Source: Candidatus Micrarchaeia archaeon (lineage in GTDB: Archaea > Micrarchaeota > Micrarchaeia > Norongarragalinales > UBA8480). Taken from it: a stretch of 17,895 nt of DNA. The notes beneath the pieces were generated by a model. It was not told where the DNA came from and did not search any database. It was given only the letters and a program-made list of their open reading frames with translations. The stretch is taken from NCBI GenBank assembly GCA_039794045.1, contig JBAMLY010000014.1:2509-20403 (forward strand), read 5' to 3'. Shown here one piece after another: positions 3,421-16,936 of the stretch. The position numbers and the translations under genes were made by a program. Numbering within the stretch: the first letter of the stretch is position 1; each line of letters begins with the position of its first letter.

Positions 3421-4932
3421 TCAAACGCGTAGCGTGGGATCGCCGTACAAAATGAATTCAAGGGCAGTCAACTCGTCCACCTCGCGAGTTCCAAGCTTTT
3501 TCTTGGCGGCAACAAACGCATCGCCAATGCGCTCGCCTGACGCTAGTCCCTTCAAAGTAAAGTAAGTTAAAGCGTTAGCAACTCCTGCTCTCTCCACCGC
3601 CGCTTCGTCCACTGCGGCAGAGCTTGAGAGCTTGTTGTCCGACAACGCGCTCATCGTGCTTCCCACGAAAGCCTTCGCGCCTCCACGCAAAAACTTTATC
3701 GCGAGGCTCTCGTTAACAGTTCGCTGGGGGTTAGCACCATAACAAGAATCAGCCACCAAAATTTTTCCAGCAAAATCAATTTCCCGCGCTATCGAGGGAT
3801 TCAAGACCAAGTAGTCACTTGAATCGCTTCTCGCCCGCCCAATGAAAGCCTGCTCTTGCAGGGGCTCGTTGCCGTGCAATGCCACGAAGACGACGTTGCT
3901 TGAAAGCCCTTCGCGCAAGGAGTCAAGAGCAGGCGGAACATAAGCAAAGTCAAGCAAGCGAATCACGGAAAAAGGCGGAGCCACCAACGCCGCCTCGCCA
4001 GCCTTCTCGAAAGAAAAGCGGTTCAAGAAATCAAAGAAAACATCTTGCGAAACGACTTTAGAGACGCCTTCAAACGAAGCGCGCTTGGAGTGCGCTTGAA
4101 TCGCTTCCTCCAACAAGTCAACAAGCACTGAATCACGCGATTCTTCCTCGAAGCCGTCAGGCAAGCGACCCACTACCGCGCCGCCAGCCGAGTAAGGCAA
4201 GTCAGTCCAAACCATTGAATCGCTTTCAAGCAAGAACTCGAACACCGGACTGTAAGACGCGGAAGACAACGGGTTAGGCGCGCGAGGCATGGAAACAATT
4301 TTTGGTCCACCAACCAACAACAAGTAGCGAGCGCCGCTCTCGTTCAAAACAGTTAGCGCGGCGGCAACATCGCCCTCTGCAGTGAATGGCGCGCCTTCCT
4401 CGTCAAAAAAAACAGTTTCAGCGTTCACTCCGTCAGTTGAAGCGGCTTTCGCGAGGCGGTTCATCGCGTCCTCAACTTGCAACGCGATTTCTCGACCGTA
4501 CTTGGCGTTAAGGCGGTCGCGCCTGCTCGCAATAACCAGTTCAACTCTCTTTTCCTCCTGCAAGGGAAGCGTGGCTTGCGGGGATTCAGTGAGTTCAACG
4601 CTTGCCTTGGCATCGCCGGAAAGCGTGATCCGCAAAGAAGCGCCTTCAAAACCTTCTTTTTCCACTCTCACTGTAACGCGCTTGCTTGCAGGCAAGCCAT
4701 CAAAAACCGTGGTGCCATTGCCCAACGTAACCGAGGAAGCAAGCACCTTCCCACCAAAAACTATTTTCACTAGCGCGCCCTCTATTGGAGCGCCGGATAC
4801 AGTGGAAACGCTGACGCTCAACCGCGCCGCCTGCTGCTGCCCAAAAAAAGAAAGAGCAACGAACGCGAGCAACGCAGCTAAAACAATCAAGGCCACGAAA
4901 ACTGTTTTCCTTGAATTGAATTGAAAGTTCAA
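3421..4932 (-). CDS. Membrane-anchored peptidase C25 (gingipain-like, clan CD) with an N-terminal carboxypeptidase-regulatory-like beta-sandwich
   Basis: N-terminal TM helix; beta-sandwich motif GAPIEGALV...VEKEGF; C25 motifs YLLLVGG, D.PY...VVGRLP, LHGN (His at 3874-3876), DSCYG (Cys at 3742-3744), GAKAFVGST, IGDAF, LYGDP. Confidence 0.85.
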   Translation of the reverse strand: MNFQFNSRKTVFVALIVLAALLAFVALSFFGQQQAARLSVSVSTVSGAPIEGALVKIVFGGKVLASSVTLGNGTTVFDGLPASKRVTVRVEKEGFEGASLRITLSGDAKASVELTESPQATLPLQEEKRVELVIASRRDRLNAKYGREIALQVEDAMNRLAKAASTDGVNAETVFFDEEGAPFTAEGDVAAALTVLNESGARYLLLVGGPKIVSMPRAPNPLSSASYSPVFEFLLESDSMVWTDLPYSAGGAVVGRLPDGFEEESRDSVLVDLLEEAIQAHSKRASFEGVSKVVSQDVFFDFLNRFSFEKAGEAALVAPPFSVIRLLDFAYVPPALDSLREGLSSNVVFVALHGNEPLQEQAFIGRARSDSSDYLVLNPSIAREIDFAGKILVADSCYGANPQRTVNESLAIKFLRGGAKAFVGSTMSALSDNKLSSSAAVDEAAVERAGVANALTYFTLKGLASGERIGDAFVAAKKKLGTREVDELTALEFILYGDPTLRV

Positions 4933-5980: not shown

Positions 5981-6061
5981 GTAGCGCCCAAAAACTGCGG
6001 CAACGCAAACAGCCTGCACTGTATTCTCCCATTCACAGAATAAGAAAAGCAGCGTAAGCGG

Positions 6062-9000
6062 TTACTCTATCTCCATTTCCAATTCTACTTGGCCAGTGCC
6101 GCACGGAATGGTTTGACCGATTATAATGTTTTCTGCGACGCCCTTCAAGGGGTCTTCCTCGCCTTTCACGCAAGCATTTATCAAGTGCTTCGCGGTTTCC
6201 TCAAAAGCAGCACGCGCGAGTACTGAAGCTTTCTCGCCAGCCAACCCATGGCGCCCCATGCTCTTGAGCGAGCCCTTGAAAGTCATGGCGTCAGCAATGA
6301 GCATCACGTGGCGCACGTCCACGTCAATGTCTTGCGCTTCAAGAACTTTCACTATCTCGGATATTATTGCGTTGCGCGCCGCCTCTATTCCCAGCACCTT
6401 GTTTATCTCGGCTATGTCGTTAGTAGTAGTACGGTAAGGCTCTACTTCAGGAACCTTAAACACTTCCTCCAAGTTAGAGCCCTCGGTCGCGATCACGTAC
6501 TCGCCATCGCGCTCGATGATGATGGCGCGCGAAATGCCTTTGATTCCGCGCAAGCTCAATTCTTTGAGCTTGTTTGTTATCTTGCGAATGTTTTTGAGCG
6601 TGTCCACTTGCGGCTTTATTGCCACGCCACGCGCTGTCTTCTCGCAGGAAGCAACGCCCTTTATTTTCTTGAGGATTTCGTCGGCAGACAACCCGTACTC
6701 CTTAAGCGCTTCCTCGTCGAAGTCAATGCGTATCACGCGCTTGTCGAAGTCTTCCTTTACTTCCGCGACTTTCTCCAAGCGAACTTCCTCGATAGAAGCC
6801 GCTATCCTGCGGACTTTCGCGTAGTCCTTTGCATACTCTTTCTTTAAGTAAACTTCCATGACTGGATTCTTTGGAGTCTTGCGCGCGTCAACTATTTCCA
6901 CGAGGCGAGTGAAGCCAAGCTGCGCAAGCGAAAGCACGCCCGCGTAGTGGAAAGTCCTCAAAGTCATTTGCGTGCCTGGCTCTCCAATGCTTTGCGCGGC
7001 AACCACTCCCACTGGCTCGCCGTAAGCTATTGACTTGTTGTTAGAGGGGTCAACGCCGTCGTCGCCGTACTTGAATTGAATAACATTTCCCTCGGCGTCG
7101 CGCACGCTCAAGTCTTCTGCCACGGTAACGTCTTGCAAGGCGTTGATCAAGCGGCGCTGCATGTAGCCAGTCTTGGCTGGGTTGACGCCCTTGTCTACTA
7201 CTGCATCGCGCCCGCCTGCCGCGTGAAAGAAGTACTCGAAAGGCGAAAGCCCGTGAGTAAAAGCAGAGGAAACGAAGCCGCGCGCGCTGTCACTCAAGTC
7301 GCCCTTTTTTTGGTGGGGCAGAATGCGGCGCTCGTAACCCGCCCTCATCCTGCGACCGCGAATTGCCTGTTGTCCCACCAAGCCACACATTTGCACTATG
7401 TTTATGAGCGAGCCACGCGCCTTAGAGCGAGCCATTACTACTGCAGGGTTCAAGTGACGCGTTTTCCCGTTGAAGTCAATGACGGTTTTCCTCACGTGCT
7501 TCAAAACCACTTCGTTGCAGTCGTTGCGCACGCCTTCCACTACATTCATAACCAGTTCTTCAAGCGTTTCGCGCAAGCTCTTGCCAGGCTTGCGTTCTAG
7601 CTTGCCGTTCCTGAATTTTTCAACGAGCTCGCGCACCTTATTTCTGCCGTGGCGGTAAAGCTCACGGATCTGGCTGCGTCCTTCTTCGCTCAACTCGTAG
7701 TCTGCGAGGGAAAGAGACAGGCCAGCGAGAGTCACGAAGCGCGAAGAAAGACGAGTTGCTGCATCAATGAATTTCCTGGCTTCCGCGGCGCCTAACTCAG
7801 CGAATATCTCACGAGCTATCTTGTCTATCACTCTGTCGTCAACGTAGCCTTCTTTGAGGACGCCATTCACTATCTTTACTTGGTGTCCTCCCCTGTTTTT
7901 CGCTTCCATCGAAAAATCTTTAGGGAGAATGGCGCTGAAGACTTCCCTGCCGTCAACTACTTCGTCTTTGAAGTCCGCAGTGACTCCAGCGTGGTAAAGC
8001 ACGTCGCACGCTTCCACGCGCGAGAGAAACACGTCGTCAGTCAAAAGGTAGATGCCGCTCAAGTGGTCCAGCGTCGGCACGACTAACGGCTCGCCGTTCC
8101 TCGGCGACAAAATGTTTTGCTCTACCTTCATTAAAAGCTCGGCTTCAGCGCGGGCTTCCTCGTTTTGAGGAACGTGAATATTCATTTCGTCTCCGTCAAA
8201 GTCCGCGTTGTATGGCTTGCACGCAGCAACGTTCAACCTGAAAGTCTTGCCCGGCATTATCTTAGCCGAGTGCGCCATCATGCTGACGCGGTGAAGCGAG
8301 GGCTGGCGGTTGAATATCACTGTGTCCCCATCCATCAACTGCCGCTCGACCACAAAGCCTGGCGCGAGCTCGGAAAGAACTTCTTCCACATTAGCTGGAG
8401 TAATCTTCTTGCGTCTCCCGTCAGGCCGCACAATGTAATTTATTTTTTGGGGGTTCTCGCGAATCACTTGCTTCAAGGATTCAATGTTCCACGAAGTAAC
8501 TCCTTCCGGAATCGTGAGCTCGGAAGCAATAGCTTCAGGAATTCCTATCTCGTTTATGCCTATCACGGCATCAGGAGAAACCACGGTGCGCGCACTGAAG
8601 TTAACGCGCTTGCCACTCAAATTGTACCTGAAGCGCCCCTCTTTTCCTTTCAAGCGCTGAAACAACGTCTTCAACTGCCTACCAGAACGGTGGCGGGCCG
8701 GCGGAATTCCAGCCGTCTCATTGTCAAAATAAGTTATCACGTGGTACTGCAAAAGCTCCCACAAGTCCTCTATGATGAGTTGTGGAGCGCCAGCGTCAAT
8801 GTTTTCCCCCAAACGCTGGTTTATGCGCAGAATGTCTACCAGCTTGTGTGTCAAATCGTCTTCGCTGCGCTCGCCTGTTTCCAGCGTAATCGAGGGACGC
8901 ACGGTAACCGGCGGAACTAAAAGCACCGTCAAAACCATGTTTTCTGGGCGCACGCTCACGCCAAGCTTCTTCAAGTCATCGTCTGGAATGCGTTCCAGCC

Positions 9001-9451
9001 TCTCACGCGTCTCGTTCGGCAAAAGCTTGCGGTCTTCCTCGTAGTAAGTCGCTGGCTTGACGAACTTTATCGTCTTCTGTTTCTCGCCGCAGTGCGGACA
9101 CTCTCCCACGTGCCTTGCCTTCTCAAGAGTGCTCGTCTCGCTCAAAAGCCTGCCGCACTTGCGGCAAGTCGCCCGCAAAAGCAAGTAAATCGTTTTAGCG
9201 AAACCAATGTGTATCACTGGACGCACTAACTCGATGTGCCCGAAGTGCCCACTGCAAGTCTTGATGCGGCCGCCGCACGTCTTACACTTCAATCCAGGAT
9301 CTATGACTCCAAGGTGTTGGTCCGCCAACCCCCCGCTTATAGGATAGCCGTCCTCGTCATAAGTGTCGGGAACCGTTATTTTGACGGCGCTCATACTGCG
9401 AATTTGTTCCGGTGAAAACAAAGAGAAAAAAATACTTTTCACTACTTCCAT
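6062..9451 (-). CDS. rpoA: DNA-directed RNA polymerase largest subunit, A'+A'' fused (Rpo1)
   Basis: Zn sites CKTC...CSGHFGH and CRKC/CPHC; NRQPSLH; catalytic YNADFDGDEMN; GYMQRRL. The same frame continues into the A'' motifs AQSIGEPGTQMT, LGIEAAR, VDVRH, RAAFEE, ENIIIGQ. Confidence 0.98.
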   Translation of the reverse strand: MEVVKSIFFSLFSPEQIRSMSAVKITVPDTYDEDGYPISGGLADQHLGVIDPGLKCKTCGGRIKTCSGHFGHIELVRPVIHIGFAKTIYLLLRATCRKCGRLLSETSTLEKARHVGECPHCGEKQKTIKFVKPATYYEEDRKLLPNETRERLERIPDDDLKKLGVSVRPENMVLTVLLVPPVTVRPSITLETGERSEDDLTHKLVDILRINQRLGENIDAGAPQLIIEDLWELLQYHVITYFDNETAGIPPARHRSGRQLKTLFQRLKGKEGRFRYNLSGKRVNFSARTVVSPDAVIGINEIGIPEAIASELTIPEGVTSWNIESLKQVIRENPQKINYIVRPDGRRKKITPANVEEVLSELAPGFVVERQLMDGDTVIFNRQPSLHRVSMMAHSAKIMPGKTFRLNVAACKPYNADFDGDEMNIHVPQNEEARAEAELLMKVEQNILSPRNGEPLVVPTLDHLSGIYLLTDDVFLSRVEACDVLYHAGVTADFKDEVVDGREVFSAILPKDFSMEAKNRGGHQVKIVNGVLKEGYVDDRVIDKIAREIFAELGAAEARKFIDAATRLSSRFVTLAGLSLSLADYELSEEGRSQIRELYRHGRNKVRELVEKFRNGKLERKPGKSLRETLEELVMNVVEGVRNDCNEVVLKHVRKTVIDFNGKTRHLNPAVVMARSKARGSLINIVQMCGLVGQQAIRGRRMRAGYERRILPHQKKGDLSDSARGFVSSAFTHGLSPFEYFFHAAGGRDAVVDKGVNPAKTGYMQRRLINALQDVTVAEDLSVRDAEGNVIQFKYGDDGVDPSNNKSIAYGEPVGVVAAQSIGEPGTQMTLRTFHYAGVLSLAQLGFTRLVEIVDARKTPKNPVMEVYLKKEYAKDYAKVRRIAASIEEVRLEKVAEVKEDFDKRVIRIDFDEEALKEYGLSADEILKKIKGVASCEKTARGVAIKPQVDTLKNIRKITNKLKELSLRGIKGISRAIIIERDGEYVIATEGSNLEEVFKVPEVEPYRTTTNDIAEINKVLGIEAARNAIISEIVKVLEAQDIDVDVRHVMLIADAMTFKGSLKSMGRHGLAGEKASVLARAAFEETAKHLINACVKGEEDPLKGVAENIIIGQTIPCGTGQVELEMEIE

Positions 9452-9462
9452 TTCTTACCGCC

Positions 9463-11295
9463 TCAACCCTGCGCGCGCAGCGAAAGCTTAGGAAATATTC
9501 CTATGCTCTTCATTTCATCCAACAATAACTTGAACGCGTAACTCATTTCAACTTCCGAGACGCTGGAACTGCCACACAACGGACAATAACGGCGGTTCTT
9601 GACTTTGTCGTGCACTGCCAGCGAACCACAAGAGTTGCAGACTAACTCTATAGTCTTGTCCGCCGAGTCCAGCATGCGTTCCTTCAACAATGAAGCCGCG
9701 CCATAGCCAATAAAGCAGTCGCGCTCCATTTCTCCAAGCCTCAAACCGCCTTCCCTCGCGCGCCCCTCTGTCGGCTGGTGCGTAAGCATTTGAACCGGGC
9801 CACGCGAGCGCGCGTGCATTTTAAGCGAAACCAAGTGATGCAGTCTCTGGTAGTAAATCACGCCAATGTAAATTTTTGCCTTCAAGGGAATGCCAGTTAC
9901 CGCGTCGTAAAGCGTTTCAGTTCCAGTCAAGCGGAAGCCGTTCTCGTGCAACACTTTCTCGAAGTCTTCCTGCGTCTCGCCGCGGAACGCCGTGCCATCC
10001 TTTATTCTTCCGTCGAGCGCGGCAGCCTTGCCAGCAAGCATTTCAAGCAAGTGCCCCGCAGTCATGCGCCCCGGAATCGCGTGCGTGTTTATTATCAAGT
10101 CTGGAACGATTCCGTCGCGAGTGAAAGGCAAGTCTTCTTGTTCGGCAAGCAAGGCCACAACTCCTTTTTGGCCGAAGCGGGAAGCAAACTTGTCTCCAAT
10201 CTCTGGAATGTTGAGCGTGCGAACGCGGACTTTAATGAATCGGTTTCCAGCGAGAGTCTCGCTCAACATGACTGCGTCAACCACTCCGCTCTCGTTGCCT
10301 CGCACGGTAACGCTTGCCTCGCGGCGTTTTTCGCTCTCGATCTCGAAAGCACTTATTTCTTTGAGGAAGCGGGGCGGCGAAGTTTTTCCGACGAGCACCG
10401 AGTTTGGTCCCACAAGAGTTTCAGGCGAAATAAAGCCGTTCTCGTCCAACTGGCTGTAAGCCTCGGGACCCAAGTAACCTTGCACGAACTCTTCCGGCAC
10501 TTGGTACTTGTCCTTCTGGCCGCCTGGATAGCGGCCTTCCTCGTCAGCGTAAGTGCGAATGAATACGCTGCGCGCCAAACCCCTCTCAACTGATGCTTTG
10601 TTTAATATGATGGCGTCGTTCAAGTTGAAGCCATTATAAGACAGTACTGCCACAACCATGTTTTGCCCGCTTGGGCGCTTGAAGTTGCCGAGAGTCTCGT
10701 AAATCGAGGTAGTGACGAGTGGACGGTGGGGGTAAAACAAGATGTAGCCGCGCGTCTCGCTCCTGTAATTAAAGTTTGCCGCGTACAAGCCCAGCGACTG
10801 CTTCGTGTGCTGGGCGGCCATTAAAACCCTGGCCGAAGAATTGTATTCAGGAAAGGGATTCTGGGAAGAAGCAACGCCGAGCATTGAAACAGGGTCTATT
10901 TCAAGGTGAGTGTATTTTTCCTCGTTCTTGCCGCTGGCTTTCTCTAAGTCTTCGGGGTTCAAGGCAACGAAGGCGTTCTCTTCTTCTTCAGCGTCCAAGT
11001 ACTCTATTACTCCTTGCTTGACTAAGTCATTCCAAGAAAGTTCTCCTTTCTTTAGCGCTTCCAAGTGCTTTTCAGTCAAGAGCGGCTTGTTGTTCTTCAC
11101 CACGATCAACGGCCTGCGAGGGCGCCCGTCGTCAGTGTTAATGAAGACTTCGTTTGTGCGCGCATAGAAAGCAACATTCGTTTGCCCGTCTATTTCGCCG
11201 GCGCGCCGTTTCTCGCGAATTTCTTTGGCGAGCTTATCGCCGTCTTCAGCGAAGCCAACAAACCTTCCATTCAAGTAAACGCTTGCTTTCTCCAT
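9463..11295 (-). CDS. rpoB1: DNA-directed RNA polymerase subunit B' (Rpo2C)
   Basis: YLDAEEEE, GKTSPPRF, GDKFASR.GQKG, QPTEGRAREGGLRLGEMERD, C-terminal Zn ribbon CNSC/CPLC. Likely ATG at 11295 after GTGA; alternative GTG at 11304 overlaps the B'' stop. Confidence 0.97.
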   Translation of the reverse strand: MEKASVYLNGRFVGFAEDGDKLAKEIREKRRAGEIDGQTNVAFYARTNEVFINTDDGRPRRPLIVVKNNKPLLTEKHLEALKKGELSWNDLVKQGVIEYLDAEEEENAFVALNPEDLEKASGKNEEKYTHLEIDPVSMLGVASSQNPFPEYNSSARVLMAAQHTKQSLGLYAANFNYRSETRGYILFYPHRPLVTTSIYETLGNFKRPSGQNMVVAVLSYNGFNLNDAIILNKASVERGLARSVFIRTYADEEGRYPGGQKDKYQVPEEFVQGYLGPEAYSQLDENGFISPETLVGPNSVLVGKTSPPRFLKEISAFEIESEKRREASVTVRGNESGVVDAVMLSETLAGNRFIKVRVRTLNIPEIGDKFASRFGQKGVVALLAEQEDLPFTRDGIVPDLIINTHAIPGRMTAGHLLEMLAGKAAALDGRIKDGTAFRGETQEDFEKVLHENGFRLTGTETLYDAVTGIPLKAKIYIGVIYYQRLHHLVSLKMHARSRGPVQMLTHQPTEGRAREGGLRLGEMERDCFIGYGAASLLKERMLDSADKTIELVCNSCGSLAVHDKVKNRRYCPLCGSSSVSEVEMSYAFKLLLDEMKSIGIFPKLSLRAQG

Positions 11296-11300
11296 TCCAA

Positions 11301-12767
11301 TCACGCCTTCATGCTCACACCAAGTTTTTTCAGCACTGGCTCCAAAGCCTTTTCTTCAACACCAGAAGTTATCTCGCAGAACAGCGCCAGGTTCTTGACG
11401 AGGCCGCAGTTCGGTCCCTCCGGAGTCTCGTTGGGATCCAGCCTACCAAAGTGCGTGCCATTCAAGTCGCGCGCCTTGTGGTGAGGATGTTTTTTGGCGA
11501 GCGGCGAAGTAACGCGGCGCAAGAACGAAAGACTGGAAATAAAGTTGTAGCGGTCAAGCGGCTGGCACACGCCAGTGTAGCCGCCAACCCAGTTGCCGGT
11601 AGCCAAAGAGTACTTAATGCGCTCGCTTAAAGCGTCAGGACGCACTACCACTGTCATGCTCATCTTGCGCCCGCGCACGTTAGCGCGCTCTATCTGGTAA
11701 CTAATGTCTTTGACTAGAAACTGGAAAGCATACCTGAACAACTCGCTCATGAGCTTGCCCGCAATCTTGAGGCGCTTGTTGGCGTAGTGGTCCTTGTCCT
11801 CCACTCTCCGCTTCTTGTAAGCAACGAGAATGCAGCGCTCAGCCATTCTACACAAAAAGTACGCTTTGGCGAGGCGCGCTTCCTCTTCCACGCCAATGTG
11901 AGGGAACAAGTAGTGGTCCAACAACAACTCAGCGCGCTTGACTTGGTATTCTACTGGCTGGCCCGGCGCAGCGCGCTTGCCAATCGTTTCAAGGGCTTCG
12001 CGCTTGTTCTTGGTCTCGTCAGCCTCCAAATTCAACAAAACATCGTTTTGAACTTCTACGTCGGGAGAAAAAGCCTCCAAAATCTTTTCGTTCTTTTCCA
12101 AGCCGAGAGCGCGCAACAACAAAACTAGTTCCAAGGACTTGCTATAAGAAGGCATTGAAGCCGAAAGCCTGCCTTCCACCGTGCGGTCAACAGTGCAACG
12201 CCCACGGAAGCCAAGGCGAGTAGAAAAAATTTTGGCGCTAGTAACCCCCTTGTCTTTGTCGCGGCTCACGAGAATGCGGTTGGGAGCTAAGTCCTCCATC
12301 GTCATCAAAGTCTTTTCAGTGCCATTGATTATGAAATAACCACCAACGTCTTGCGGGTCCTCCCCCAATTCCACGAGCTCTTGAGGAGTCTTGCCGTGCA
12401 AGTAACACAAATTACTTTTAGTCATGACGGGAAGCTCGCCAACGTAAATGTCTTCCGTCTTCTTTTCAACGCCGTTCAAGACTATAGTCATTTCCAGGAA
12501 GAGAGGAGCCGTATAAGAAATGTCGCGCAAGCGCGCCTCCATTGGGTAAAGCGGGCGCCGCGAGCCGTCAGCCTCGGTAATCATTGGCCTCTCGACGCGA
12601 ATCTTGCCAAGCTTTATCACGAGGCCCTCTATCTGTGGTTCTATCACGCGCTGCGAGTCAACCACTTCCTGGAGCCCCGTGGCAACGAACTTATTGTAAG
12701 AATCAAGGTATTGCTTCACCAAAGAATTCTGCAAGAGATATTGACGTGTAAGTTCCGGGAAAGCCAT
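11301..12767 (-). CDS. rpoB2: DNA-directed RNA polymerase subunit B'' (Rpo2N)
   Basis: PMEARLRDISY, GGYFIINGTEK, DKDHYANKRL, LATGNW, ETPEGPNCGLVKNLA; AAGGTG SD upstream. Confidence 0.97.
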   Translation of the reverse strand: MAFPELTRQYLLQNSLVKQYLDSYNKFVATGLQEVVDSQRVIEPQIEGLVIKLGKIRVERPMITEADGSRRPLYPMEARLRDISYTAPLFLEMTIVLNGVEKKTEDIYVGELPVMTKSNLCYLHGKTPQELVELGEDPQDVGGYFIINGTEKTLMTMEDLAPNRILVSRDKDKGVTSAKIFSTRLGFRGRCTVDRTVEGRLSASMPSYSKSLELVLLLRALGLEKNEKILEAFSPDVEVQNDVLLNLEADETKNKREALETIGKRAAPGQPVEYQVKRAELLLDHYLFPHIGVEEEARLAKAYFLCRMAERCILVAYKKRRVEDKDHYANKRLKIAGKLMSELFRYAFQFLVKDISYQIERANVRGRKMSMTVVVRPDALSERIKYSLATGNWVGGYTGVCQPLDRYNFISSLSFLRRVTSPLAKKHPHHKARDLNGTHFGRLDPNETPEGPNCGLVKNLALFCEITSGVEEKALEPVLKKLGVSMKA

Positions 12768-12812: not shown

Positions 12813-13061
12813 TTAATCTACCACGAGACGGTAATAAAGGGCGTCCTTGCCAGTGGCAGGACTAACCCTAGTAATTTTTATTACGTCGCCAACTTTAGGG
12901 CCGAGAGGAATCAAAGACGGGTCAGTAACACGAATTTTCGGCAGCTTGTCCAACGTCAAACCATAGTCGCTCAAAAGCTTCTTGACTTCCTCTCCAGAAG
13001 CAACCTGCATGCGTGGAACTAAAACGTGGACAGTAGGGTAAGATTCGTGGCTCTCAGGCAT
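12813..13061 (-). CDS. rpoH: DNA-directed RNA polymerase subunit H (Rpo5)
   Basis: HVLVP, LPKI...DP, GDVIKITR.S...G...YYRLV; canonical first position in the rpoH-B-A operon. Confidence 0.96.
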   Translation of the reverse strand: MPESHESYPTVHVLVPRMQVASGEEVKKLLSDYGLTLDKLPKIRVTDPSLIPLGPKVGDVIKITRVSPATGKDALYYRLVVD

Positions 13062-13954: not shown

Positions 13955-14521
13955 ATGATGTTATCCGACGACGGAATCAAGAAAGCCGTCAAGAAACGCG
14001 AGCTCGAAATCATTCCCTACTACGACTACGCCCTCCTCCCTTCAGCGTACGTCATGCACCTCGGCAAAAACTTTTTGCGTCCAGCGCGCGGTAAGACAAT
14101 CGACGCAGTACACGGGCCCACCGAAAAATACTACAAGCCATTCTCCATAACAGACGCAAAGCCACTACGCTTGAAACCAGGAGAGTTCGTGCTCGGCGAA
14201 ACCATGGAAAAAATTCGACTCTCCAACAAACTCGGCTTAATGATTGAAGGCGTGAGCGCGTTGGGACGCTTGGGCGTCACCGCCGTAATGACTGCCATGC
14301 TCGTCGACTCAGGGCACGGCTGGTTCAAGCCGCGAGCGATAACCCTCGAAATAAAAAACCAGGGCCCCAACACGATAATCTTGCGCCCAGGAATGAAGTT
14401 CTGCCGCTGCGTCTTCTTCCGCCTCGAAACGCCTGCCACGTTCTACAGCGACGCAAAAAGCAAGTACGCCTTCCAAGAAGGAGTAGGCGCGCCCAAGCCC
14501 TTGAACGAATTCGGAGTGTAA
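13955..14521 (+). CDS. dcd: dCTP deaminase family protein (trimeric dUTPase fold), divergent
   Basis: MLSD.GI, LKPGEFVLGETME.I.L, EG.S.LGRLG, ITLEIKN.GP..I.L.PGM, C-terminal SKY..Q.G; TTAATTAAAA about 25 nt upstream suggests a leaderless mRNA. Confidence 0.85.
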   Translation: MMLSDDGIKKAVKKRELEIIPYYDYALLPSAYVMHLGKNFLRPARGKTIDAVHGPTEKYYKPFSITDAKPLRLKPGEFVLGETMEKIRLSNKLGLMIEGVSALGRLGVTAVMTAMLVDSGHGWFKPRAITLEIKNQGPNTIILRPGMKFCRCVFFRLETPATFYSDAKSKYAFQEGVGAPKPLNEFGV

Positions 14522-14530
14522 AACCCGGCC

Positions 14531-14908
14531 TTACTTGAACCACTTGCGCGCGACTTCCTCTGAATACCATTGACGCAAAAGCTTTTCAGGCTCCACGCGC
14601 CCCACGAACTCAATCTTTACTGGGAAACCATGGTCCGTCTTGTGACCCATCCAAACTATTGCGCCCTGCCTCCTCTTATGAAGACCCCGCTCTTCAAGCA
14701 ATGCAATCAAACGCGCCACTTTCTCTTTGCTCTCAACAAAGCCAGCCAAGGAAGCCGACTTGAGTTCCTCCGGCCGCACAACAGGCAACAACGTCTTAAT
14801 AGTCGGAAAAGCAGTCTGGTGAATTGGCTTGCCAGTAATTTCCTGCGCGCGCTTGTCTGGCACTACCAGTTTTTCTTTCAGAATCTGGTTAACAGCAACC
14901 AAAACCAC
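14531..14908 (-). CDS. Hypothetical protein (about 125 aa)
   Basis: Fills the gap between dcd and the HD gene; GGGGTG SD before the GTG at 14908; natural-looking composition; no family recognised. Confidence 0.65.
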   Translation of the reverse strand: MVLVAVNQILKEKLVVPDKRAQEITGKPIHQTAFPTIKTLLPVVRPEELKSASLAGFVESKEKVARLIALLEERGLHKRRQGAIVWMGHKTDHGFPVKIEFVGRVEPEKLLRQWYSEEVARKWFK

Positions 14909-14987
14909 GAAAAACACCCCCCAAACATAGGCGAGAAAGTAGTATTAAAAATAAGCGCAAACAAAATAATACTCCCAAAGGAAGGCA

Positions 14988-15644
14988 GTGAAACAACCAA
15001 TGCAAGACAGCGAAAGCTCACTAGAAGAAATCTGGAAGCAAAGAAAAAAAGAGTTACCTACAGAAAGCAAGCTCTCGGAAAACACGGAGCACTTGCTTGG
15101 CTTACTTAAAAACCACTGCCTCGAAGCCTACCAGCACTCCCTGCGCGTCGCCCTCCTCGCCGACGAGCTCGCCACAAGAGAAGGAATGCAGGACGCCAAA
15201 CCCGCCTTCTACGGAGGCTCCCTCCACGACTGCGGAAAACTAATGCTTCCCGCCTCCCTCTTGAACGCCCCCCAAATCAACAACCACGCATACAAAGAAA
15301 TAAAGAAACACGCGGAATACGGCTACAAAATGCTGGCAGAAAAACACCCCGTCTGCGCAATGATCGCGGGAAGCCACCACCGAATCGCGCGCGGCGGCTA
15401 CGGCTTGCAACCCCACGAAGCAAAACTGCCTTTCTCGCTTCACAGCAAGCCAACCATAATGCAGGCAGCAATCACGGTAGCACTAGCAGACTACTTTGAC
15501 GCAGCCATGACGCGAAGAAAAGCTGAAGGCACTCAAATAAAAGCCGAGATGGAACACGCCTTCAACCGCCATGCAAAAAAAATTCCGTTGCTGTTCGCAA
15601 GCGACTACGCGCACTTGTTCTACTACAGGGGCATAAAACACTAA
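14988..15644 (+). CDS. Stand-alone HD-GYP-like metal-dependent phosphohydrolase
   Basis: HSLRVA, LHDCGK, KKHAEYGY, HHRIARGGYG (at the HHE..DG.GYP position), ADYFDAAMTRR. Start could be GTG 14988 or ATG 15000. Confidence 0.85.
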   Translation: MKQPMQDSESSLEEIWKQRKKELPTESKLSENTEHLLGLLKNHCLEAYQHSLRVALLADELATREGMQDAKPAFYGGSLHDCGKLMLPASLLNAPQINNHAYKEIKKHAEYGYKMLAEKHPVCAMIAGSHHRIARGGYGLQPHEAKLPFSLHSKPTIMQAAITVALADYFDAAMTRRKAEGTQIKAEMEHAFNRHAKKIPLLFASDYAHLFYYRGIKH

Positions 15645-15736
15645 ACAACTTAAAAAACAAGCAGTTTGCCGTCTTCGCCCCCGCCACGCCAGCCAGAAAC
15701 TACAATTAATAAATTAAGCGCGGCACTCCTTCTTGC

Positions 15737-16936
15737 ATGCAACAAACACTAGAACGCAAGCTAACTCTCACAGACGCCACTTTCTTCGAAGTCGGAGGCA
15801 TAATTGGCGCGGGAGTGTTCGTGCTAATAGGCCTAGCGACTGGAATGAGTGGCCCCGCCATAGTGCTCGCAGTAGCGCTCGCTGGCTTCGTCTCGTTCGT
15901 CACCGCCCTCAGCTACGCGGAAATCAGTTCCGCCATTCCAGCCGAAGGCGGAGAATACGAGTACGCATATCGCCTTGTATCACCAGCGGCAGGCAACGCA
16001 GTCGGCCTCGGCTGGCTCGCCGCAGACATTACTTCCAGCGCCGTCGTAAGCATCGGCTTCGCCAGCTACTTCACCGCAGTCTTCCCACAAGTTCCCACCA
16101 AGATTGCAGCGTGCGGCGCCGTAGCACTCGTAACCACGCTCAACCTCCTCGGAGTAAAGCTGAGCGCGCGCGCCAACAACGTGATCTCCACAGTAAAAAT
16201 TGCAGTCCTCGCGTTCTTCATCGTTTTCGCGCTCGCGCACTTCAACCCAAGCAATTTCTCGCCCCTCGCCCCAAAAGGAGTTGCTGGAATAACTTCTGCT
16301 GCGGCGTTGTTCTTCTTCGCGTTCTCGGGCTTCGGCAAGATAACGCGCTTAAGCGAAGAAGTAAGAGACGCCGAACGCACGCTCCCAAAATCAATAATTG
16401 CCGCGCTCGCGCTATGCACCCTGCTTTACATCATGACTGCAGTAGCTCTCGTCGGCGCCGTAGGCTGGGCTTCCGCTTCTTCAACGAACTCGCCGCTTGC
16501 TTCCGCGCTCGCTCAACTCGGCGCGCCAGGACCAGCGCTTGTAGTAACAGCCGGAGCCCTCGCCGCCACTTTCAGCGTGCTATTAACAAACAACGCTGGA
16601 ATCTCGCGCATAATATTCGCGTTCGGGCGAAGGCACAAGAAAGCCGCTTCGTTGAGCGAGTTGCACTCCTGGTTTAAAACGCCGTGGAAAGCAGTCCTAC
16701 TCGCAGGCGCCGCCACAACCGCAATCGTTTCATTCGTGGAAATGCAGGGCATAGCCACCATCGCAAGCTTCCTGTTCCTCGTTTACTACGCAGCAATTAA
16801 CTCGATAGCTATTGCCGCGCGCGGACGCGAAAACTGGAAGCCGCGCTTTCGCACGCCGTTCTTTCCCCTCTTTCCAGTGCTCGGCATAATTTCTTGCGCG
16901 CTGCTCTTGGCGGGACTAGTTTTAAGCACGCAATAA
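15737..16936 (+). CDS. APC-family amino acid permease
   Basis: GGIIGAGVF, ALSYAEISSAIP.EGG.Y, FFAFSGF, SEEVRD.ERT.P, SRIIFA, TP..A; about 11-12 TM segments. Confidence 0.93.
   Translation: MQQTLERKLTLTDATFFEVGGIIGAGVFVLIGLATGMSGPAIVLAVALAGFVSFVTALSYAEISSAIPAEGGEYEYAYRLVSPAAGNAVGLGWLAADITSSAVVSIGFASYFTAVFPQVPTKIAACGAVALVTTLNLLGVKLSARANNVISTVKIAVLAFFIVFALAHFNPSNFSPLAPKGVAGITSAAALFFFAFSGFGKITRLSEEVRDAERTLPKSIIAALALCTLLYIMTAVALVGAVGWASASSTNSPLASALAQLGAPGPALVVTAGALAATFSVLLTNNAGISRIIFAFGRRHKKAASLSELHSWFKTPWKAVLLAGAATTAIVSFVEMQGIATIASFLFLVYYAAINSIAIAARGRENWKPRFRTPFFPLFPVLGIISCALLLAGLVLSTQ

Follow-up and report, generated by a model that had tools for sequence, protein, structure and literature searches.

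How far can the active centre of RNA polymerase (RNAP), a textbook case of universal conservation, be altered in an enzyme on which the cell depends? The question is raised by a 17,895-nucleotide stretch of DNA (hereafter the window) from a Candidatus Micrarchaeia archaeon of the order Norongarragalinales (Micrarchaeota), the order name used here, in which the gene rpoB' encodes the C-terminal half of RNAP subunit Rpo2. An earlier note, made from the sequence alone, had listed five motifs of subunit B' as rewritten and had proposed a functional but remodelled catalytic centre rather than decay. We found that B' is the ordinary, essential Rpo2' of the cell's only RNAP and that the first shell of the active centre is unchanged: NADFDGD, which holds Mg-A, and (in E. 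coli beta numbering) D814 with its partner R1106, R678, K1065, K1073, Q688 and H1237 are all in place. Comparison of homologs indicates that the second shell is changed in two layers, the older of which extends well beyond the order.

The RNAP genes of the window form one run, in which rpoB' is the third gene:

9463..11304, minus strand: rpoB', C-terminal half of Rpo2, 613 aa, single copy, intact
12813..13061, minus strand: rpoH (Rpo5), first gene of the operon
11301..12767, minus strand: rpoB'', 488 aa, with an intact TPEG motif of fork loop 3/betaD-II
6062..9451, minus strand: rpoA, 1129 aa, A' and A'' fused and the stretch between them deleted

The rpoB' open reading frame (ORF) has neither an internal stop nor a frameshift, and it matches the Pfam families Rpb2_4, Rpb2_5, Rpb2_6 and Rpb2_7, i.e. 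Rpb2 domains 4-7, across its full length; the comparison of its product with the best solved archaeal chain (4qiw_B) gave an E-value of 3.8e-222. The genome (G000; 655 kb, 92% complete) contains one rpoB', one rpoB'' and one rpoA, and a search of it for a second rpoB or rpoA copy found none. TFB, TFE, Spt5, the TBP repeat and Rpo4, Rpo6, Rpo7, Rpo10 and Rpo11 are represented by matches over cut-off and Rpo3 by a match below it; two zinc-finger ORFs picked by eye we take to be Spt4 and Rpo12. In the order as a whole rpoB' was matched in 38 of 41 genomes. Selection was estimated as the ratio of nonsynonymous to synonymous substitutions (dN/dS) by the Nei-Gojobori method. Against its nearest relative the window gene has dN 0.148 and dS 2.58 (dN/dS about 0.06), three close pairs in the order have dN/dS values of 0.014/0.536, 0.027/0.576 and 0.049/0.831, and in these pairs the dN of the motifs alone is 0-0.014. 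The comparison among relatives that the note had suggested thus yields about 0.03-0.06 overall. rpoB' is under strong purifying selection, which together with the single intact copy argues against decay; the second canonical rpoB beside a copy under relaxed selection, named in the note as a finding that would undo its proposal, did not appear.

All five motifs are present in the 613-aa ORF exactly where the note had placed them:

10615..10620, minus strand: metal-B dipeptide; N229 (codon 10618-10620) replaces betaE813/Rpb2 E836, D230 (betaD814/D837) is kept
10162..10197, minus strand: basic-loop motif; K372, R376 and K380 (betaK1073) are kept, F377 (codon 10174-10176) replaces betaH1070
10060..10089, minus strand: funnel motif NTHAIPGRMT; R413 (betaR1106) is kept, G412 replaces betaS1105
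9820..9840, minus strand: HHLVSLK; H490 (betaH1237) and K495 (betaK1242) are kept, L494 replaces betaD1241
10798..10845, minus strand: link-domain motif, aa 154-169; R159 (betaR678) and Q169 (betaQ688) are kept

The remaining equivalences to beta are K372=K1065, M162=M681, Q165=N684 and H166=M685. Beta numbering follows an alignment of the fetched E. coli record, in which BLAST aligned aa 213-310 and 355-603 of B', the registers of the link domain and of the metal-B site being set by motif matching; the yeast equivalents (E836, D837, S1019, R1020, R766, K979) were taken from Table 1 of PMC3533926 and from PMC2919709. The claim that the Arg, Lys and Asp residues in contact with NTP or RNA are kept while their neighbours change holds, since R159, K372, R376, K380, R413 and D230 are intact.

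Four sets of homologs tell how widely each change is shared: 61 distinct relatives (without the window, one stray of 31% identity, pieces shorter than 450 aa and identical rows), collected in part by similarity, those members carrying no label of the same order; 52 of the 110 other genomes of the same class that had a match (other Micrarchaeota); 150 broad representatives drawn from clusters at 50% identity, the majority of eukaryote- or virus-like type; and the 120 proteins closest to a B subunit with a Nanoarchaeota name, most of them without a name (Nanoarchaeota-like). The window B' lacks the canonical ED motif at metal B, in which Glu precedes the invariant Asp. The Glu of this motif occurs in 140/150 broad representatives, 7/52 other Micrarchaeota, 70/120 Nanoarchaeota-like proteins and 0/61 relatives, and its Asp (the D230 site) in 150/150 broad representatives. 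At the Glu site the relatives have N (47), D (9) or Q (5), 45/52 other Micrarchaeota have G, A, K, S, Q, L or M, and 50/120 Nanoarchaeota-like proteins have some residue other than Glu. Micrarchaeota show ten states there, with Glu recurring at nested positions of the tree, and non-Glu residues are also found among broad clusters bearing Thermoplasmatales, korarchaeote, Anstonellales and Nanoarchaeota names. D1241 is kept in 131/150 broad representatives, 2/60 relatives, 7/120 Nanoarchaeota-like proteins and 0/52 other Micrarchaeota, all 52 of which have N, L or T. The S1105 site is Ser in 139/150 broad representatives and Gly in 57/61 relatives, 9/52 other Micrarchaeota and 10/120 Nanoarchaeota-like proteins. 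His at the H1070 site was never invariant (merely 118/150 broad representatives), and the change to Phe is not fixed, the 61 relatives having F 39, Y 14, H 5, A 2 and L 1. D230, K372, K380, R413 and Q169 are invariant in relatives, other Micrarchaeota and Nanoarchaeota-like proteins, and R376 in the first two sets (61/61 and 52/52). The 35 genes labelled as belonging to the order, window included, agree with these counts (site 229: N 23, D 8, Q 4; site 412: G 32, S 3; H166 in 35/35).

The link domain differs from these sites in being specific to the order. V160, L161, Q165 and H166 are fixed in the order and specific to it, M162 is the bacterial betaM681, and L161, M162 and H166 are invariant in 61/61 relatives. 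Among 600 B' columns ten hold order-specific residues (at least 90% in the relatives, rare in other Micrarchaeota and in the broad set), four of them within aa 160-166; as a background, the relatives are fixed at only 15 of the 141 columns in which other Micrarchaeota vary freely. A158 and T407 would be private to the window, being known from this one assembly, because Pro is kept at both sites in 61/61 relatives (P407 also in 140/150 broad representatives); N149 is likewise found in 0/61 relatives and A548 in 2/58. The departures of the window are real, given that the canonical residue dominates in the 150 broad representatives. They affect 16 of 131 broadly conserved B' positions, compared with 8-23 in the relatives and 8-27 in other Micrarchaeota, and the window B' is no outlier in either group. 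The earlier note therefore overstated how special the changes are, since the metal-B Glu and D1241 vary in Micrarchaeota and Nanoarchaeota-like proteins and H-to-F is unfixed. Its reservation that the residues may be common among archaea is borne out in part, for the metal-B Glu and for D1241.

Some genomes in these sets have peculiarities of their own. One genus labelled as the window's family (L091/L092 in G002 and G009, P0001) has a fused 1078-aa B subunit on a branch of 0.63, with Phe at the betaH1237 site, Ala at H1070 and Asn at the K168 site; with 23 departures at the 131 conserved positions and dN/dS 0.026 it is more extreme than the window. In family f13 (L131-L150) the metal-B Glu site is Lys in the 10 genomes fetched, and the bridge helix is rewritten further. 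A few relatives have second rpoB-like matches, namely an Rpb2-like gene of 31% identity on a 3-kb contig (L093, G015:C94), a partial copy on a 1.5-kb contig (L095, G027:C5) and, under a single record title, two different rpoB' genes (L045/L052); these probably stem from bin contamination.

The elements around the catalytic site in the other two large subunits are also affected:

7163..7195, minus strand: bridge helix D753-Y763 of subunit A, rewritten, with P758 at 7178-7180
11436..11438, minus strand: D444 of B'', C-to-D just before the TPEG loop (codon position derived)

P758 occupies the beta'T790 site (M. jannaschii A' T821), and Pro is found there in 57/57 relatives and 0/50 other Micrarchaeota; the site of yeast Rpb1 G823 (bridge-helix G782) is Ser in 54/57 relatives. 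The C-to-D change of B'' is present in 49/49 relatives, 0/51 other Micrarchaeota with a residue there and 8/122 broad representatives. A' and A'' are fused in 57/57 relatives; at the junction, near window positions 7019-7042, few residues lie between the A'-like and A''-like parts, and compared with solved archaeal subunits about 55 N-terminal residues of A'' and the tail of A' are missing. A seemingly fused A outside the order (G125) proved to be an artefact, the gene consisting of two ORFs of 642 and 855 aa. Of all the changes, the link-domain rewrite, the bridge-helix Pro, the fork-loop C-to-D change and the A'/A'' fusion alone are markers of the order. Subunit A retains NADFDGD (about 8189-8209) and a canonical trigger loop, including its Gln and His. 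The funnel residues of DNA-dependent two-barrel enzymes, Rpb2 R1020 and Rpb1 K752 (PMC2919709), are present as well: R413 is kept, and R679 of A aligns with beta'R731 (Lys or Arg in 57/57 relatives), which we take to be the equivalent of Rpb1 K752.

A tree of B' (FastTree, 105 rows, motif columns masked, Nanoarchaeum equitans left out, subunit A not included) places the Micrarchaeota together with support 1.0, apart from the Nanoarchaeota-named P0013, and the order together with support 0.91. The window lies on a branch of normal length, and the order-specific changes all fall on one branch.

The positions kept and changed are those expected from published work on the same residues. Eight residues are invariant in two-barrel polymerases, namely three Asp, an Arg and a Pro in the A subunit and D837, K979 and K987 in B (PMC2919709); all eight are present here, as NADFDGD and R382-x-P384 in A and as D230, K372 and K380 in B'. 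E836 is outside the eight; it contacts Mg-B via water only and is missing in enzymes of the Qde1/YonO type (PMC2919709). Yeast does not survive D837A, R1020K/Q or R766A/Q but tolerates E836A and S1019F, at the cost of a slow polymerase with a severe fidelity defect; the fidelity defect of Rpb1 G823A is moderate (PMC3533926). In E. coli, substitutions of E813 reduce RNA cleavage less than those of D814, and the effect of M681Y is small (bioRxiv 10.1101/2024.06.20.599782); a salt bridge links D814 to R1106 (PMC5856549). The link domain contacts the N-terminus of the bridge helix, the betaD-II loop, RNA and NTP (PMC2988716), and T821 of M. jannaschii is sensitive to change, although T821P still has detectable activity (PMC2776397). 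Since the lethal sites are kept and the sites of viable mutants are changed, the kept residues would be the essential ones and the changed residues those that tune rate and fidelity.

The comparisons show two layers of change. In the first, the metal-B Glu and D1241 were freed from strict constraint across Micrarchaeota and other DPANN archaea. In the second, on the stem of the order, new residues were fixed in neighbouring mobile elements (the link helix, the bridge helix with Pro at the T790 site, the C-to-D change before fork loop 3 and Gly at S1105) and A' was fused to A''. We consider it probable that the enzyme carries out standard two-metal catalysis but holds Mg-B, through water, less firmly, and that its interface of link domain, bridge helix and fork loop is repacked. 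Asn, Asp or Gln at the Glu site would still present a side-chain oxygen to the waters around Mg-B, though with a looser hold, so that NTP affinity and elongation rate would probably be below those of the canonical enzyme. The changes in link and bridge helix, two elements in contact, may represent a co-adapted repacking that preserves function and brings no new chemistry. Several points weigh against this model. The yeast mutants cited have Ala or Phe and the window Asn or Gly, and the contacts of each site were taken from papers rather than mapped on coordinates. Clustering in the link domain was tallied only after the region had been singled out. The dS of the window is near saturation (pS 0.73), as in 5/7 window pairs, which makes its dN/dS rough. 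Finally, as all order-specific changes share one branch, their co-occurrence is a single event and provides no statistical test of co-adaptation.

The transcript-cleavage factor TFS bears on how such an enzyme may be used. In the 41 genomes of the order neither PF01096 nor TIGR01384 gave a TFS match over cut-off (0/41); four archaeal controls were positive, and TFE exceeded its cut-off in 39 of these 41. Thus, of the factors whose retention the note had wanted checked, TFE and Spt5 are found in G000 and TFS is not. In G000 a profile of nine Micrarchaeota TFS-like proteins detected no TFS-like ORF, no TFS gene was found beside rpoL, and a motif screen plus lineage profile for a divergent TFS returned weak zinc-ribbon matches only (best E 0.004). 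Across the phylum 12/121 genomes, confined to two families, score above the PF01096 cut-off, and 8 of the 12 hold a two-ribbon protein with a DE hairpin; the TFS-like proteins that are short (81-88 aa) and carry a GDE hairpin come mostly from family f13. A sub-threshold PF01096 match in G025 and a match in G062 resemble what is presumably NrdR, and the match in G093 was rejected as an unrelated protein. The lack of TFS in the 41 genomes and in most sampled Micrarchaeota departs from a review according to which TFS is conserved in all archaea save Methanopyrus kandleri (PMC7289017). A coupling of TFS loss to Glu loss was rejected on co-distribution: PF01096 matches none of the 7 Glu-keeping genomes (of 52), and K, K, K and Q stand at the Glu site of the 4 fetched genomes in which a two-ribbon TFS-like gene is present. 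We put forward tentatively that an order without TFS runs its sole RNAP on a co-adapted active-site shell, a Nanoarchaeum-like architecture reached independently, and either accepts a fidelity unusually low among cellular polymerases or has a built-in means of avoiding or rescuing backtracked complexes. This shell would comprise the amide in place of the metal-B Glu, the Gly next to the Arg that binds NTP, the rewritten link helix, a bridge helix kinked by Pro, and the fused, shortened A.

Two further observations concern transcription factors. A 119-aa ORF near the TFE gene (L179, G000:C3:17898-18254, plus strand) has two zinc-ribbon-like CxxC pairs and is without the long acidic hairpin of TFS. 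The sole TBP match in G000 (C3:39537-39836, minus strand) is a 100-aa single-repeat protein; TBP is over cut-off in 35/41 genomes of the order (L167-L178), each time as a single repeat, the open frames measuring 93-150 aa apart from one of 182, and we found no literature on single-repeat TBP of the order.

Some of the data would also suit tolerated drift alone, in which the non-lethal sites of fast DPANN polymerases wander with little effect and no need of compensation: Glu comes and goes within Micrarchaeota, the same positions vary in the 120 Nanoarchaeota-like proteins, F377 is unfixed, and 16/131 departures are unremarkable among divergent archaea. We nevertheless regard this as unlikely, because the Glu site is restricted to N, D and Q in 61 relatives of 70% median identity and other residues are fixed (H166, L161 and M162 in 61/61, P758 in 57/57, D444 in 49/49), which suggests a new constraint instead of free wandering. 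Rather doubtful, too, is a relaxation of fidelity, by which TFS and fidelity-tuning residues (E813, S1105, bridge-helix G782) were lost at the price of more errors, or by which less backtracking or better unaided cleavage made TFS dispensable. It would fit the absence of TFS from all 41 genomes, the fidelity defects of yeast E836A, S1019F and Rpb1 G823A and the Ser at the G823 site; TFS loss and Glu loss are however uncoupled among the 52 genomes, and N. equitans has Gln at the Glu site yet keeps TFS (PMC8204694).

A decaying or spare copy, or assembly errors, might account for A158, T407, N149 and A548, the residues rare or absent in relatives, and a second copy could be missing from an assembly that is 92% complete. 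Most changes are however common to dozens of genomes, the gene sits in its rpoH-B''-B'-A operon without stops or frameshifts on a branch of normal length, and dN/dS is about 0.06, so that we consider this reading largely refuted; the note's preference for a functional but remodelled centre is borne out by the single copy and the retained essential residues, as far as sequences can tell. Transfer of the operon from a Nanoarchaeota-like donor would explain the bridge-helix Pro, the C-to-D change and the fusion at once, as N. equitans is altered in the same elements and Pacearchaeota are reported to have a fused A'/A'' (PMC8204694). We find it highly improbable. The masked B' tree, which lacks N. 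equitans, puts the order inside Micrarchaeota (1.0, P0013 aside), the Pro is one residue off that of N. equitans (T821 versus A822 site), and position 165 is Lys or Arg in 120/120 Nanoarchaeota-like proteins, none of which has H166. Standard catalysis with a loosened Mg-B hold and a repacked interface thus remains our preferred explanation.

The rest of the window encodes a CARDB-domain protein and a 427-aa protein without a Pfam match (144-2500 and 3421-4932), a 503-aa protein in the same region with weak peptidase C25 and carboxypeptidase-regulatory matches below cut-off, a dCTP deaminase-like gene, an HD-domain protein and an amino-acid permease (13955-16936), and tRNA-Pro(TGG) at the right end; ARAGORN, run without intron search, found just 11 tRNA genes in G000. 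Reads of one hot-spring DNA run, possibly from the source sample of the genome, covered window positions 6000-8448 with zero differences, rpoB' lying outside the covered part. Given this match, the subunits may be heat-stable enough for reconstitution.

As divergent RNAP active centres in DPANN archaea are already published, the surprise is limited; on the RNAP motifs or TFS of Micrarchaeota we found no literature, in searches that mostly did not cover subscription journals. The lineage shows which positions can change in a housekeeping enzyme, its natural pattern agrees with laboratory genetics in that lethal sites are kept and fidelity or rate sites changed, and it offers a natural test of how far the RNAP core may change and still transcribe accurately. 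It also appears to provide a second, independent natural route to a Pro-containing bridge helix, which bears on the need for a kink in that helix.

Compared with canonical archaeal Rpo2 (4qiw_B, 36ro_B, 2waq_B, 2pmz_B), the window protein aligns over its full length, with the same domain order, C-terminal Cys motif and operon and with every essential residue; it differs at the changed sites, where the aligned canonical chains have E-D, H, S and D-K. E. coli beta has the canonical E813, H1070, S1105, D1241 and M685, at each of which the window is changed, but it shares Leu-Met at 680-681 and an amide at 684 (L161, M162 and Q165 here), a partial convergence with the bacterial link helix. Laboratory mutants exist at the same positions: yeast Rpb2 E836A and S1019A/F (PMC3533926), E. 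coli betaE813A/Q (bioRxiv 10.1101/2024.06.20.599782; PMC5856549) and M. jannaschii A' T821P (PMC2776397). In the accounts cited they are viable or active and mostly slower or less accurate; they are single changes in a canonical background, whereas those of the window are combined, involve other residues and belong to a wild-type enzyme. The fifth carboxylate, E836, is also absent from RNA-dependent RNA polymerases of the Qde1 type and from YonO-like enzymes (PMC2919709), two-barrel enzymes that, unlike the RNAP of the window, are single-subunit and non-housekeeping.

The closest known case is the RNAP of N. equitans, which is active in spite of E-to-Q at metal B, a Pro in the bridge helix and C-to-D in the fork loop; in standard buffer it is about 7-fold less active than the M. 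jannaschii enzyme, and fluoride stimulates it (PMC8204694). Its authors extended the divergent pattern to Woese- and Pacearchaeota (Nottebaum and Weinzierl 2021, PMC8204694), and Micrarchaeota do not appear in the sections of that paper cited here. Both enzymes are from DPANN archaea and have an amide at the metal-B Glu site (Asn here, Gln there), a Pro in the central bridge helix and C-to-D at fork loop 3; the A'/A'' fusion is shared with some Pacearchaeota (PMC8204694). The fork-loop-3 set of N. equitans comprises C-to-D, G-to-D, V/I-to-R and N-to-A. By motif spacing D444 is the same change as its B'' D445, and G451 is kept in the window B'', so that the G-to-D change is absent. The window differs further in its phylum, in the place of the Pro (T821 site here, A822 there) and in a canonical TPEG Gly and trigger loop. 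In the other direction, the link-helix rewrite, S1105G and the lack of TFS found here are not described for N. equitans in the same sections, which report that it keeps TFS. Because the Pro is shifted by one residue, the link motif differs and B' groups with Micrarchaeota in the tree, the window enzyme is not a member of the N. equitans case; by analogy, it may work in the same way.

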